Origin: Clostridia bacterium
GTDB lineage: Bacteria > Bacillota > Clostridia > Christensenellales > Borkfalkiaceae
Assembly (NCBI GenBank): GCA_017626305.1
Contig: JAGAIW010000181.1
Location: 4,283 to 68,282 of the forward strand
Reading direction: 5' to 3'
Length of the DNA: 64,000 nt
Made by a program: the position numbers and the translations under genes. The notes below the pieces were generated by a model. It did no database searches, was not told the origin of the DNA, and saw only the letters and a list, made by a program, of their open reading frames with translations. This document shows positions 8,692 through 44,679 of the stretch, in pieces (position 1 is the stretch's first letter; each line of letters opens with the position of its first letter).

Positions 8692-8720
8692 TTGACAACC
8701 TGCCGTTTTTGTGTTAAAAT
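8692..8720 (+). promoter_or_regulatory. SigA-type promoter (extended -10) of the 3368-aa gene
   Basis: TTGACA (8692-8697), 17 nt, TGtTAAAAT (-10 hexamer 8715-8720), in an AT-rich region about 120 nt upstream of the ATG at 8840. Confidence 0.55.
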
Positions 8721-8839
8721 ATTGAAAATAGTATCGTTGTATGCTTTTATCGTTGGCGATTTTTTTCAAACGAAAGGATTGAAACGTGAAAATACGAACG
8801 GTATAAAAACGAAGAAATTTAAAGCAAAAGGAGGCTTTT

Positions 8840-11800
8840 ATGAAGTTTAAGAAACGTTTGGTTGGCTTAATGCTTGCAACCGCTCTCACGACGTTTACCT
8901 TTGCATTGTCGTCTTGCGGTGGAGAAGAAAACCAGTCAAGTTCGACATCTTCCGAAAGCACTACGTCGGAAACGGTAACCTTCGAGAAAACGGGCGAGTA
9001 TTATTGCAGTACGGGCAGCGCGGAATATACGTTGACCATTAACGAAGCGGATTGCAGCTTGGTTATGGGCGAAACGACGCTGACCGGTACGTACTCAAAA
9101 GACGGAGATACGATTAAAATCGTCTTTTCCGATGGTTCGCTTGGCTCGGTTACGGTGGACGGTACGGTTTTAACCTTGAAAAAAGGGGAAGAAACGTATA
9201 CCTTCTATGAAAATATCGAACATACCGTAACGTACGAAACGAATGGTGGTTCTGCCGTAGCGGCGACAACGGTCGTCAACGGTAAGGTGACGGCGAAACC
9301 CGCTGATCCTACGAAAGACGGACATTGGTTTATCGGCTGGTATGCCGACGAAGATTTCAAAGCTTTATATGACTTTGATAATCCCGTTATGGCAAATACT
9401 ACGCTGTATGCACGCTTTGTCGAAGATTTAGGGAAAACGGAATTCTCCGTTAATTTCGTAGTCGACGGAGCAGCGGCGTTCGAGCCCGTAGAAACGAAGA
9501 ACGGCGTTGTATTCAACACCGAACTTCCCACGCCCGAAAAGGACGGCAAGGTATTTGCAGGTTGGTGGGTAAGTAACTACGGTGACGAAAATAAGCTTAC
9601 ATATAAATATAATGAAGACAAGCTTGGCGAAGACACCACGCTTTTTGCCGTTTGGGAAGATGCTGAAAACCTGAACGTTTCCGTAAAATCTACGGGTATT
9701 TCGTGGAGCAACGTCGGCGTCAACAGTATTTATAAATACGTCATTAAAAATGCAAGCGGTGCTACCGTTTACATGGGTACGCCTACGCCTGAAACGAGCG
9801 AAGCGTTTGATTTCAGCCAGTTTGCGGCGGGTGAATATACCGTAGAAGTTTCCGTCAGCGGCACGAACGTTAAGCAGACGGCGTATTACAAAAATAAAGC
9901 GCTTGCTAAGGTTAGCAAGTTTGAAATTTCTGCCGACCGCGTTTTGACCTTCAACGCTATCGATAACGCAACGAAGTATATCGTTACGGTAGATTGCGGC
10001 GACGAAAACCACACGCATACGTCGGTGGAAGTGACCACTCCTGCATTCGACTTTGCAAACTGCGCAATGCAAGAAGAAGGTATCAAGTTTAGCGTAAAGG
10101 CAGTAGCTGACGGCTATATGGATTCCCTTGTAGCAGAACACAGCTTTGAAGCTCGTCTTGCGGAAGTGACGAATCTCGTAATCAATCAAGATACGGAAAT
10201 CGTGACATGGGACGCGGTAGAAAATGCAGAAGGCTACGTTGTAGAAATCTTCGACGACGGCACGTCGCTTGGTAAGAAGACGGTTAGCGAAACGACCGTT
10301 TCGCTCAGAGGATTGTCGGGTAACTTGGAAGTAAAGGTATATCCCGTTGCAAGAGCGTATAATTCTTCTGAATTGAAGGTAGCTACGTTCAACAATACAA
10401 GACTGGCGATTCCTATGGACGTTAAGCTTGAAGGACATTCCGTTACTTGGACTGCCGTTGATAACGCTACGGGCTATAAGCTTACGATCGGCGGACAAGA
10501 ATACACCGTTTCGACGAATAAGCTTGATTTAGAAGACGAGCATTTCATCAACAACGTTTCGGAAATCTACGTACAGGCACTTTGCGCCGACGAAACGAAG
10601 ACTTCCTTGAAATCTGATTTGTTTACCGTTCGTTCGGATAACGTCATGTCGGATACGCTTGTTTATAACAACGGCGAAATCTCGTGGGATGCCGTTCTCG
10701 TTGCTGCGAAATACGGTATTATCGTAGGCGACGGTGAAGAATATTTCGTAAACGACGCCAACAAAGCGGCGGTTGTATTTACGCAAAAGGGCGACGTCGT
10801 TATCAAGGTTCGTTGCTATAACGCGCAAGGCGAAACGTCCGAATGGGTAAGTAAAACGGTTAAAGTATACGAAGTCGTTCTCGAAGCGGAAGGCGGGGTT
10901 TCCGTGGCTTCCGATTATAAGGCGGAAGGGGACGTTTACACGTTGCCTGAAACGACGAGAACGGGTTACAAATTTGTCGGTTGGTACGATATCCCCAACG
11001 GCGTAACGACGGGCAATAAGCATGAAAATACGTTTACCTTTGGTAAAGCAGACTTGACGTTGTATGCAGGTTGGACTTCCGAAAATTATACCGTTACGTT
11101 AAATCTTGGCGATAACGGCATACTTGCTGAAACGACGGCAACGGTCGCTTTCAACCAAGACTTCAAATTGGCTGTACCTAAGTCTAAGGACGCAACCAAG
11201 ATTTTCGCAGGTTGGAGAACGCAACCTAACGGTCAAGGGGTAGAATATACCGATTTGAACGGTGATTCTAAGGTAAAATGGTTGCATAGCGATAATGAAA
11301 CCGTTTTGTACGCAAGCTGGTATAGCATCTTTAACTTTACTGAAATTAAGTTGGGTGAAGAAACCGGTTGGGCAGTAACGAAGGCGAACGGTATTTACTA
11401 CGTTGATACCGTAGAAATCCCCGCCGTTTACGACGGACTTCCCGTATTGTCGGTAGACACTAGCGCGTTTAAAGGTTGCACAAACTTGAAGACAATCCGT
11501 ATTCCCGACACCATTCGCTACGTCGCAATGGGTACGGACGGCGGTAGCACGACGGGTTCGGCGTTCGAAGGCTGTACGATGCTTGAACAAGTAGTCGTAT
11601 ATTGTGTAGACGGTGCTGCGCACGACGAGCACGACGTCGTTTATGAGTCGGACGCGTCGGGTGCGTTGTTCCGCTATACGGAAACGAATAAGGAAATCGT
11701 ATACCTGCCTATGACGGCTACGGGTACGTATTACATTCCCGAAGGCGTAACGTCTATTCCTTTCGGTGCGTTCCGTAACGCAAAACTGACGAAAATCAGC

Positions 11801-43079: not shown

Positions 43080-43104
43080 TAACAAACTTATTTGGTGAAT
43101 TCGT

Positions 43105-44679
43105 ATGAGAAAAAAAATTATTTGGCTTTTAAGCTTTGCATCCGCCCTGCTTTGTTGTTTAGGCTTGGCGGCATGCGATAGCAAGACGAGACTCGAAGAG
43201 CTCAAAGAGCAAGGATATACCATATCCGTAACGTATGATGCCAACGGCGGAAACTACTCAGATGACTTTTCGCTTATGGATATATTTAACCCTGATAAGT
43301 TTCAGCAAACGGAAGGGGAAATACATATTCCCTTAAAAGAACCGACAGATCCTACTCGTCCGACGAAGAATAATAAACCCATCACTCTGGAAAGAGACGG
43401 GTACTTCTTTGCGGGTTGGTATGAAAAAAGAACGGTAAAAATGCAAAATGGAACGCCGGTTGACGACAACGGTCGTGCGCTTAAATTGCTTGATGACGGC
43501 ACGTACGTTTATGCTGAACTTGCACAAGGGGAAAAAGAAACTCCCGTTATTCCTGCTTACGAGTACGACGACCGTTGGGATTTTTCTCAAACTTGGGATA
43601 TTAAACCGTCAGAAATCAACGGAGCTCTTTCCAAAACGTTATACGCTGGTTGGGTAAAGTATTACGAATTTAATTACTATTACTATCAAGAAGACGACGC
43701 GGCGACGCAAGAAAACGAAAGCGGCTGGACTTTGCTGCATAAACAGACGTTTGACTATAAAACGACGAACGCGGAAGGTTCGCAGACGGCGGATAAAGAT
43801 ACTATTTGGTTACCCAAGTGGGAAGACGGCGTTATGGATCACGCACATTCGTATGCAAATGAGTCGGTATATAATTTCCCGAAGTTGACGGGAAAAACGT
43901 TCTCGAAAGCGTATTTGGATAAAGAGCGTACGCAAGAGATTACAGGCGGCGTATTTGAACACCGTGGGTCGTTGGATTACGAGCACGCCTTGGCGATCAA
44001 TCCCGTAGAGAATATCTACGTAGACTTTACGGAAGGCGAACAGTACAAAATTCAAACGGCAAAACAACTGCAAAATAATTTCAATATCAACGGTTGGTAT
44101 GAAATTACGGCGGACTTGGATTTTGCAGAATATAAGTGGCCTGTAAACTTCTCGAAAGGAACGTTCATGGGTAAAATGTATTCTACGGAAGGCGAAAGCT
44201 TTGCCATCAAAAACGTATCCGTTACGTATACGTCGGCAGGCGCAGCAACTTGCGGTGGCTTGTTCGGAGAACTTGGTGAAACGGCGGAAATTAAAAATTT
44301 GACTTTTGAAAACGTAACGTTTGACATGGCGGTGGCGCAGCTTGCCAGCGAATCCAACTTCGGTTTGTTCGCAGGTTATATCCAAGATGGCGCAACGATT
44401 AGCGGTGTGTCTGTTGGCGGAACGTTTAAAATCGGACAAGTAAGTACGAGATTTACCGATTATAGTTTCCATTTGTTGGCAAACGGAAAAACGGACGGTA
44501 TCACGCAAAATACCATTTCGTTGCAGCTGTACGGAGAAGAGCTCGGCTCGCAATATACGTACACCGTCGTTCCTGAAAGTACGACGCTTGCCGCAAACGG
44601 CGTTATACAGTTGCAAATAAGCTCGTCTATCGAAGTAAGAGATCAGGCGACTTATGATATCAATAAAGAAGAAGAATAA
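43105..44679 (+). CDS. surface lipoprotein with Flg_new-type repeats and a GLUG-like beta-helix-type module
   Basis: 524-aa ORF. Lipobox CCLGLAA|CDS. VTYDANGG...DGYFFAGWYEKRT...LYAGW. C-terminal IQTAKQLQNNFNINGWYEITADLDF...GTFMGKMYSTEGESFAIKNVSV...CGGLFGELGETAEIKNLTFENVTFD resembles the GLUG-motif pattern; this call is tentative. Confidence 0.75.
   Translation: MRKKIIWLLSFASALLCCLGLAACDSKTRLEELKEQGYTISVTYDANGGNYSDDFSLMDIFNPDKFQQTEGEIHIPLKEPTDPTRPTKNNKPITLERDGYFFAGWYEKRTVKMQNGTPVDDNGRALKLLDDGTYVYAELAQGEKETPVIPAYEYDDRWDFSQTWDIKPSEINGALSKTLYAGWVKYYEFNYYYYQEDDAATQENESGWTLLHKQTFDYKTTNAEGSQTADKDTIWLPKWEDGVMDHAHSYANESVYNFPKLTGKTFSKAYLDKERTQEITGGVFEHRGSLDYEHALAINPVENIYVDFTEGEQYKIQTAKQLQNNFNINGWYEITADLDFAEYKWPVNFSKGTFMGKMYSTEGESFAIKNVSVTYTSAGAATCGGLFGELGETAEIKNLTFENVTFDMAVAQLASESNFGLFAGYIQDGATISGVSVGGTFKIGQVSTRFTDYSFHLLANGKTDGITQNTISLQLYGEELGSQYTYTVVPESTTLAANGVIQLQISSSIEVRDQATYDINKEEE

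Follow-up and report, generated by a model that had tools for sequence, protein, structure and literature searches.

Why should the genes of several very large exported proteins lie around an operon for a MoxR-type ATPase, a DUF58 protein, and two proteins with von Willebrand factor A (VWA) domains? Bat-type MoxR-DUF58-VWA operons are widespread, occurring in Bacteroidota, spirochaetes, Proteobacteria, Actinobacteria, and Bacillota, and have no agreed function. The question is raised here by a stretch of 64,000 nucleotides (nt) from a Clostridia bacterium of the family Borkfalkiaceae (contig JAGAIW010000181.1), called the window below. An earlier note on this DNA had proposed that positions 8692 to 44679 may form one functional unit, in which a membrane-anchored MoxR-VWA machine matures, folds, or anchors very large adhesins with leucine-rich repeats (LRR), and had named plain co-location in a surface-protein hot spot as the alternative. 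Our own reading, held with slightly better than even confidence, is that the core from ~8.7 to 35.5 kb is an eight-gene surface cluster of Christensenellales-like gut Clostridia, a Gram-positive variant of the Bat type with dedicated lipoprotein partners.

The genes were mapped from an open reading frame (ORF) listing and Pfam scans of the window proteins, which bore out that all the genes from 8692 to 44679 lie on the plus strand; the plus-strand run in fact exceeds this claim and extends from about 3471, with deo-type nucleoside genes on the 5' side, to 51893, with an Opp transporter on the 3' side. The core begins with the gene of a giant lipoprotein of 3368 amino acids (aa), G3368 (8840-18946), with the lipobox LSSC, N-terminal Flg_new/Flg_new_2 repeats, and then about 23 LRR_5 stretches. 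The next six genes make up a predicted operon. Its first product is TM371 (371 aa; 19212-20327), with three transmembrane (TM) segments, an ectodomain resembling Flg_new_2, and a C-terminal tail that is very acidic. This gene is followed by those of a cytoplasmic MoxR-type AAA+ ATPase of 377 aa (20362-21495; AAA_3, E = 6.5e-62; AAA_lid_2, 2.5e-17) and a cytoplasmic, VWA-like DUF58 protein with a DxSxS motif (21495-22394; DUF58, 4.7e-34). The two VWA proteins come next: Bat660 (660 aa; 22391-24373), with a BatA_N double-TM hairpin, a VWA_2 domain, and a C-terminal TM segment, and VWA957 (957 aa; 24386-27259), with an N-terminal TM pair, a VWA domain, a weak GATase1_like match, a second VWA domain, and a C-terminal TM segment. 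The last gene of the predicted operon encodes the lipoprotein LRR975 (975 aa; 27311-30238; lipobox FAAC), with seven LRR_5 stretches and a C-terminal Flg_new module. The eighth gene of the core (30359-35539) encodes Flg1726, a lipoprotein of 1726 aa with the lipobox SVAC, N-terminal Flg_new, and about 1400 aa of all-beta structure without a family. The MoxR, DUF58, and two VWA genes are flanked by those of G3368 and LRR975, as described earlier, with the TM371 gene also inside.

Relatives were sought by scanning one genome per GTDB species, which yielded 316 stretches with relatives. Synteny was counted in the best 80 of these 316 loci (loci here and on metagenome contigs are cited below by L numbers), all from species-representative genomes and with Bat660 at 39 to 60% identity; ORFs were called in all 80 and matched to the window proteins with phmmer, and each feature was counted only among the loci with enough flanking DNA, hence the differing denominators. 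The labels of the 80 loci include Candidatus Scatosoma, Candidatus Borkfalkia, Christensenellaceae, Pumilibacteraceae, and "Clostridia bacterium," and their gut sources are human, deer, rabbit, sheep, and chicken. An LRR975 orthologue stood directly 3' of VWA957 in 65/65 loci, at a median gap of 15 nt, and TM371 was found in 52/52. MoxR and DUF58 were at their canonical place in 60 of 62 loci, a protein of >900 aa with G3368 or LRR975 as its best match ended just 5' of TM371 in 48 of 49, and a Flg1726 orthologue lay 3' of LRR975 in 56 of 62. The same gene order was seen in the Pfam-annotated neighbourhoods of independent metagenome contigs. Synteny between MoxR/VWA operons and large LRR_5/Flg_new genes is thus conserved, and on this point the link proposed in the earlier note stands. 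Bat660 itself has >1200 homologues, and a profile search gave 756 clusters (50% identity) at E<=1e-30. Four contigs with the Clostridia-type cluster (L042, L055, L057, and L074) are labelled Akkermansia muciniphila, Prevotella sp., Anaeroplasma bactoclasticum, and Acidiphilium sp.; they are probably mis-binned or mislabelled contigs of metagenome-assembled genomes (MAGs).

Median identity to the window proteins was 85% for MoxR, 71% for DUF58, 45% for VWA957, 42% for Bat660, 40% for LRR975 (over the full length), 35% for Flg1726, 34.5% for TM371, and 29% for the giant, the divergence of LRR975 being similar to that of the VWA proteins. Against the complete giants of two distant relatives (L036 and L054), G3368 was colinear over residues 52 to ~2750 at 32 to 33% identity, and Flg1726 had 233 homologues, of which those listed were almost all 1600 to 1780 aa long and aligned end to end. 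Because the alignments of LRR975 and Flg1726 span the full length and those of the giant are colinear, the LRR and Flg_new proteins of the cluster are, on this evidence, orthologues, not swapped adhesin cassettes. A search for DNA-level tandem repeats in the LRR arrays with Tandem Repeats Finder gave just two trivial repeats in 8-45 kb, and recently amplified or phase-variable arrays are rejected; the arrays are old and diverged.

The cluster has been rearranged and duplicated in some genomes. In L096 (1-16962 of ERZ28614788 scaffold_153) and L097 (ERZ27286956 k141_3553), both metagenome contigs, the MoxR-DUF58 pair is missing between TM371 and Bat660 and sits immediately 3' of Flg1726; L036 and L054 are also without it at the canonical place, and their downstream end is cut off. 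Judged by gene order, the pair moved in one lineage yet stayed within the cluster. Three single MAGs carry two paralogous clusters, namely CAUGYD01 (L019 and L081), CAKXBD01 (L021 and L082), and JAFTDZ01 (L056 and L084). The second copy in CAUGYD01 (L081) is near-complete, with its own giant, TM371, MoxR, DUF58, Bat660, VWA957, and LRR975, and the paralogous set of CAKXBD01 is partly sampled.

The outer flanks varied. Downstream of the cluster there were a subtilase, a protein of 5xx aa, and an SBP_bac_5 protein in L093, L094/95, and L099, a pyrimidine-biosynthesis operon in L098, and, in L096, another giant together with Mntp and a P-type ATPase. A metagenome scan anchored on the N-terminus of the giant revealed at least four upstream arrangements, none with the window's deo operon. 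With flanks this variable, inherited gene order alone is a weak explanation of the core. Given the conserved counts, the variable flanks, and the movement of MoxR-DUF58 within the cluster, the core is not explained by mere co-location in a hot spot. What the sequences show is the domain content, the conserved motifs, and a gene neighbourhood kept despite flank turnover, rearrangement, and duplication.

Three promoter-like sites precede the genes of the core on the plus strand: one 5' of the G3368 gene (8692-8720; TTGACA-17-TAAAAT, 11/12 plus TG), one for the predicted six-gene operon (19127-19155; TTTACA-17-TATAAT, 11/12 plus TG), and one 5' of the Flg1726 gene (30292-30320; TTGACA-17-TATAAT, 12/12). 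They are the top three plus-strand consensus promoter matches, and the first, already claimed in the earlier note, is real as a consensus match. A plus-strand hairpin after the G3368 gene (18997-19024), with a 12-bp stem, nine G-C pairs, and a T-rich tail, is the region's strongest terminator-like site. On the same strand between 19212 and 30238, we found no strong terminator-like hairpin, none having more than seven stem pairs. Within the predicted operon, the frames of MoxR and DUF58 and of DUF58 and Bat660 overlap, the DUF58 start sharing position 21495 with the MoxR stop, and from TM371 to LRR975 the frames are either overlapping or spaced by 12 to 51 nt. The consensus promoters, the terminator-like hairpin, and the short gaps without a strong terminator suggest three transcription units, that is, G3368 alone, TM371-MoxR-DUF58-Bat660-VWA957-LRR975, and Flg1726-subtilase-L524 with or without the Opp genes. 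The 36-kb block does not hold together as a single unit, since it divides into these three predicted transcription units and includes a separable subtilase/L524/Opp module. As a functional unit, the six-gene operon with its two flanking lipoprotein genes is well supported; this part of the original proposal is retained, and its extension to the whole 36 kb is not.

Conservation extends to the catalytic and binding motifs of MoxR and of every VWA-like domain. Walker A (G49-T56) and Walker B (D115, E116) of MoxR are conserved in >=95% of 62 sequences, and D88, S90, and S92 of DUF58 in >=95% of 70. The window MoxR, at 377 aa against ~330-350 aa in most relatives, has a low-complexity Ala/Glu/Pro-rich tail of ~45 C-terminal residues. 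Bat660 matches BatA at 26.9 bits (cut-off, 25.9) and VWA_2 at 25.4 bits, just under the cut-off of 27, and the residues D96, S98, and S100 of its metal ion-dependent adhesion site (MIDAS) are invariant. VWA957 matches VWA_2 in two stretches (1.2e-26), with D80 and S82 (first VWA domain) and the DxSxS motif D456, S458, and S460 (second VWA domain) conserved in >=95% of 69 sequences. The AlphaFold model of Bat660 (predicted local distance difference test score [pLDDT], 80) consists of a TM hairpin, a VWA domain, a beta-sandwich, a flavodoxin/GATase1-like domain, a second beta-sandwich, and a TM helix, and its Foldseek matches are BatB (3ibs), 4jdu (aerotolerance-related, Bacteroides fragilis), and 2gk3 and 3soz (STM3548/STM1381). 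Sequence searches against the PDB with a Bat660 profile, VWA957, and Flg1726 gave marginal matches only.

TM371 matched no Pfam family above threshold and had 237 homologues, in none of which another domain occurred. Its TM2-TM3 loop is conserved and probably cytoplasmic, and residues ~255-371 form an extremely acidic Gly/Glu/Asp tail with conserved tyrosines (Y333 and Y365). We speculate that this acidic tail might be a MIDAS ligand. The lipobox cysteine of LRR975 (C23) is conserved in >=95% of sequences. Residues 301-1400 of Flg1726 were modelled as all-beta (pLDDT, 84.5); against PDB folds, the model gave nothing above a template modelling score of ~0.1. The beta-propeller or YD-repeat-like matches at this score are noise, and no family could be assigned.

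For the topology, the physical contacts, and the role of ATP we infer the following. Bat660 and VWA957 have a Lys/Arg-rich loop after TM1 and Lys/Arg-rich C-terminal tails, and because of these positive charges, their large VWA/GATase1-like domains are predicted to face outward. MoxR and DUF58 are placed in the cytoplasm because they have neither a signal peptide nor a TM segment. The two VWA proteins and TM371 would form a membrane platform, whose outward MIDAS sites would hold LRR975 and probably also G3368 and Flg1726. VWA binding to an LRR protein is an established mode, known from the eukaryotic pair of VWF-A1 and GPIb-alpha, which serves here as an analogy only, with no homology implied, the binding in the cluster being a proposal. 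In the cytoplasm, MoxR with DUF58 would spend ATP in one of two ways. It may act through the TM segments of the platform to assemble or remodel it, or it may keep the very large lipoprotein precursors export-competent, as is reported of mycobacterial MoxR1 and RipA (PMC12067865). The giant and Flg1726 genes, nearly constant neighbours of the operon, would be transcribed separately. The narrower claim that MoxR-DUF58-VWA is a machine dedicated to assembling and anchoring LRR lipoproteins of very large size is one that we advance tentatively, as a possibility that is open to considerable doubt.

The closest known arrangement is the BatI operon of Bacteroides aerotolerance, with its spirochaete and Rhizobium homologues (MoxR, DUF58, and BatA to BatE). 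As there, a MoxR protein (AAA_3) with intact Walker motifs is encoded directly upstream of DUF58, and behind the pair come two VWA proteins with a BatA_N double-TM anchor and a MIDAS; the VWA fold in the window matches BatB (3ibs) and B. fragilis 4jdu, and the outward topology predicted here parallels that of Borrelia BB0173, a protein of the same BatA_N-VWA-TM layout whose VWA domain was found by experiment to be periplasmic (PMC5700661). The search for BatC (TPR), BatD, and BatE (SH3/TPR) gave no TPR, BatD, or SH3 match among the proteins encoded in 8840-47320 at E<=0.01, so the window cluster is a variant and not a full BatI operon. It also differs in that its VWA proteins have two to three times the length and carry GATase1-like domains, beta-sandwiches, and a second VWA domain in addition, that its operon opens with a clade-specific 3-TM protein and closes with an LRR_5 lipoprotein, that giant lipoproteins are its constant neighbours, and that its host is a member of the Bacillota and presumed monoderm.

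The earlier note knew of no description of a link between MoxR/VWA proteins and LRR adhesins. We found none either: no paper in the searched literature brings BspA and MoxR together, and those that combine MoxR, "leucine-rich repeat," and "von Willebrand" concern unrelated conflict systems. The claim of novelty is nevertheless weakened by partial precedents (PMC8430577, PMC12067865, PMC5700661). In the bifidobacterial PFNA cluster (pkb2-fn3-MoxR-duf58-tgm), MoxR(MRP)-DUF58 is genetically tied to a large secreted or surface protein of adhesion type in a gut commensal (PMC8430577). The partner in the window is an LRR_5/Flg_new protein instead of an FN3 one, and none of the five PFNA core genes encodes a BatA_N-VWA membrane protein such as the window has; conversely, no Pkinase or transglutaminase match occurs in the block, and fn3 is present in LRR975 at a sub-threshold level only. 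The mycobacterial ripAB-moxR1 locus is the second precedent. There a MoxR(MRP)-DUF58-membrane VWA operon adjoins the genes of exported envelope proteins, and MoxR1 is reported, with Bhuwan et al. 2016 as the source, to mediate the export of RipA, to which it binds (PMC12067865). The clients described there are small Tat-exported NlpC/P60 hydrolases, whereas the candidates here are lipoproteins of 1 to 3.4 thousand residues whose signal peptides lack a twin-arginine motif and whose export is presumably Sec-dependent, and an LRR gene lies inside the operon. The third is in Borrelia, where BB0172 is a VWA protein that binds integrin (PMC5700661).

The lipoproteins themselves resemble BspA and internalins, since they combine LRR_5 arrays and Flg_new (InlB B-repeat) modules on exported proteins, with lipoboxes or a signal anchor. 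The window proteins differ from that group in being lipid-anchored or anchored by a C-terminal TM segment, in being one-to-one orthologues instead of variable adhesin families, and in being embedded in a MoxR-VWA operon.

Two further large proteins are encoded beyond the core on the plus strand, a cell-envelope-type subtilase of 2500 aa (35577-43079), its length counted from the ATG used in the earlier note, and L524, a lipoprotein of 524 aa (43105-44679; lipobox LAAC) without a family above threshold. Together with G3368, LRR975, and Flg1726 they are the five large products for which about 9,100 aa had been claimed, and their lengths sum to 9093 aa. All five carry export signals as reported, four of them lipoboxes and the 2500-aa protein a signal anchor and C-terminal TM segment. 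The shared domain toolkit described with them was recovered in part. LRR_5 arrays are present in the 3368-, 975-, and 2500-aa proteins (E = 0 with 23 stretches, 6e-164 with 7, and 3e-114 with 7, respectively). The Flg_new repeats were recovered in the 3368-aa (6e-26), 975-aa (4.6e-9), and 1726-aa (1.3e-17) proteins and not in the 524-aa protein, where the match is sub-threshold (15.7 bits against a cut-off of 27; E = 0.016); no homology of Flg1726 to the 524-aa protein was detected. The Flg_new-like module in TM371 lies below threshold in the window copy (Flg_new_2, E = 0.061) and gains backing from homologues, 48 of the 120 listed having precomputed PF18998 or PF09479 matches. As to the fn3-like modules, the one at the N-terminus of the 975-aa protein falls just under the cut-off (22.5 against 25 bits), and that in the 3368-aa protein was not upheld, Pfam giving no fn3 match in residues 1-1000 and none across the full length at E<=0.01.

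The earlier note had missed that the 2500-aa protein is a subtilase. Pfam places Peptidase_S8 at residues 227-700 (1.8e-44), with an inserted PA domain (4e-10) and then fn3_5 (9e-9), the order of a cell-envelope proteinase of the lactocepin or C5a-peptidase type, followed by LRR_5; the C-terminus has a TM helix and a charged tail, with no LPXTG motif. Downstream of L524, an oligopeptide ABC transporter identified by Pfam matches is encoded on the plus strand (44654-51893), consisting of an 888-aa SBP_bac_5 lipoprotein and OppBCDF. The set looks like a module for extracellular proteolysis and peptide uptake. Subtilase orthologues lie 3' of Flg1726 in L093, L094/95, and L099, where Flg1726 is 32 to 57% identical, and in another lineage (L101, L106, and L144) they occupy the other side of the cluster, before the giant; proteins of 505 to 519 aa stand directly 3' of the subtilase in L093, L094, and L099, and SBP_bac_5 follows. 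The subtilase, found on either side, recurs near the cluster in differing orders, and by its distribution the set is a frequent but separable accessory module.

This module is the basis of the strongest rival, or complementary, explanation, namely, that the cluster serves protein foraging. The lipoproteins and VWA proteins would capture host or dietary (glyco)proteins, the subtilase would cut them, Opp would import the peptides, and MoxR-DUF58 would only maintain the membrane platform. The complex would be the same as in the reading we favour, and the purpose would differ, being nutrition instead of adhesion or display. Lactococci pair a cell-envelope protease with Opp in this way (the PrtP/Opp scheme). 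The subtilase in the window carries the same LRR_5 toolkit and is followed by the SBP_bac_5/OppBCDF transporter, the arrangement recurs in the three loci with the module downstream, and the orthologues upstream of the giant in three further loci mean that the enzyme has come to lie near the cluster repeatedly. However, neither subtilase nor Opp was present within 10 kb 3' of Flg1726 in L096 and L098, whose upstream side was not sampled, and a subtilase with Opp has an obvious function of its own that needs no MoxR-VWA module. We regard foraging as unlikely, if well short of negligible.

The next rival holds that the operon is a generic Bat module of envelope homeostasis or stress, with the same envelope or aerotolerance-related role as Bat operons elsewhere, and that the LRR/Flg_new lipoproteins are unrelated adhesins, adjacent by inherited order and shared expression. 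A core of MoxR, DUF58, and BatA_N/VWA proteins does occur without LRR genes in Bacteroides, spirochaetes, and Rhizobium (PMC5700661), the relatives examined here are all of one clade, and the variable large surface-protein genes nearby, with giant paralogues elsewhere, lend the locus a hot-spot flavour. This rival has difficulty, however, with the position of LRR975 at a median of 15 nt from VWA957 in every locus counted and its divergence at the rate of the VWA proteins, with the lack of conservation in the outer flanks, with the relocation of MoxR-DUF58 inside the cluster instead of out of it, and with the second set in CAUGYD01, which retains its own giant, TM371, and LRR975 genes. We consider it rather improbable.

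A conflict or anti-phage system of the ternary MoxR-vWA type, in which the LRR proteins would act as sensors, a type known from literature cited in PMC12067865 and suggested here by a secondary bpMoxR match (39.9 bits), is rejected as extremely improbable, since the best match of MoxR is AAA_3 (208 bits), PADLOC gave just weak partial matches (<=29 bits) and no system components, no effector, beta-propeller, or NTPase-sensor domains accompany it, the LRR proteins are all exported lipoproteins and the VWA domains predicted extracellular, and throughout the clade the cluster is stably chromosomal instead of patchily distributed like an island. Likewise, there was no sign of a mobile island, the region having no tRNA genes, no Rfam families, and an even G+C content.

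Several observations weigh against the eight-gene surface cluster with dedicated partners, the reading that we nonetheless favour. All the relatives examined fall in one order-level clade, the best 80 to 150 matches of the searches being all from the same family, so part of the fixed gene order could be inherited synteny. The total of promoter and terminator consensus matches in the region is near the shuffle expectation. Six loci, here called type B, carry a Big_3 protein or nothing in place of Flg1726: a Big_3 protein of 1055 to 1128 aa, with no detected homology to Flg1726, in L058, L070, L078, L080, and L086, and no large gene in L081. Identities between type A and type B paralogues indicate an old, weakly resolved split, and the comparison served only to show that L081 has its own set from giant to LRR975, not co-evolution. 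One type B cluster, L080, is without the upstream giant. Conversely, giant paralogues of 3355 to 3488 aa stand without the operon in L114-L122, L133, L148, and L149, followed by a 685-aa minus-strand gene instead of the 3-TM/MoxR operon; on contig ODYI01000112.1, an operon-linked giant and the orphan giant L120 (L119/L120) have near-identical signal peptides. Together, the orphan giants and the giant-less L080 mean that adjacency of the giant is not obligatory. As to mechanism, MoxR and DUF58, if cytoplasmic as predicted, cannot contact folded extracellular LRR domains, and with the VWA domains outward, any folding of LRR adhesins by MoxR would not be direct. Finally, Bat operons elsewhere work without LRR partners, Bat function is contested, and a Leptospira mutant without all the bat genes showed no phenotype (PMC3557215).

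The rest of the window holds several other genes. A nucleoside-catabolism set on the plus strand (3471-7794) comprises a DeoC aldolase, a purine nucleoside phosphorylase, a phosphopentomutase-like metalloenzyme, a cytidine deaminase, and a pyrimidine nucleoside phosphorylase, and its adjacency to the cluster is not kept in relatives. Three minus-strand genes at 52257-56410 resemble an [FeFe] hydrogenase of the HydABC type, probably electron-bifurcating, with Fe_hyd_lg_C/SSU, a Nuo51-like FMN subunit, and a thioredoxin-like 2Fe-2S subunit. A 772-aa ORF at 56762-59080 has a Metallophos domain. Three plus-strand ORFs, at 7809-8555 (248 aa), 59346-61658 (770 aa), and 61672-63582 (636 aa), match no Pfam family above threshold, the last having a weak Filamin match only.

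The cluster supplies a concrete, testable candidate partner, the co-operonic LRR975, for a widespread type of operon. It turns the vague label "chaperone-like" into a hypothesis in which the MIDAS binds LRR or acidic-tail partners, MoxR-DUF58 controls assembly or export, and the loss of either alters surface display. If the narrower claim of a dedicated assembly and anchoring machine is true, LRR975 would be the first extracellular client or partner to be identified for a Bat-type VWA protein, an operon family unexplained since its naming in 1999 would gain a concrete function, and there would be a new route of Gram-positive type to a giant surface coat, beside sortase, S-layer, and plain lipoprotein anchoring. 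The hosts are abundant, little-studied, and mostly uncultured gut Clostridia of humans, ruminants, rabbits, and chickens. In each genome, surface proteins of ~9,000 residues in all are thereby marked as what may be one organised structure, of relevance to the contact of these commensals with the host, food particles, and other microbes.

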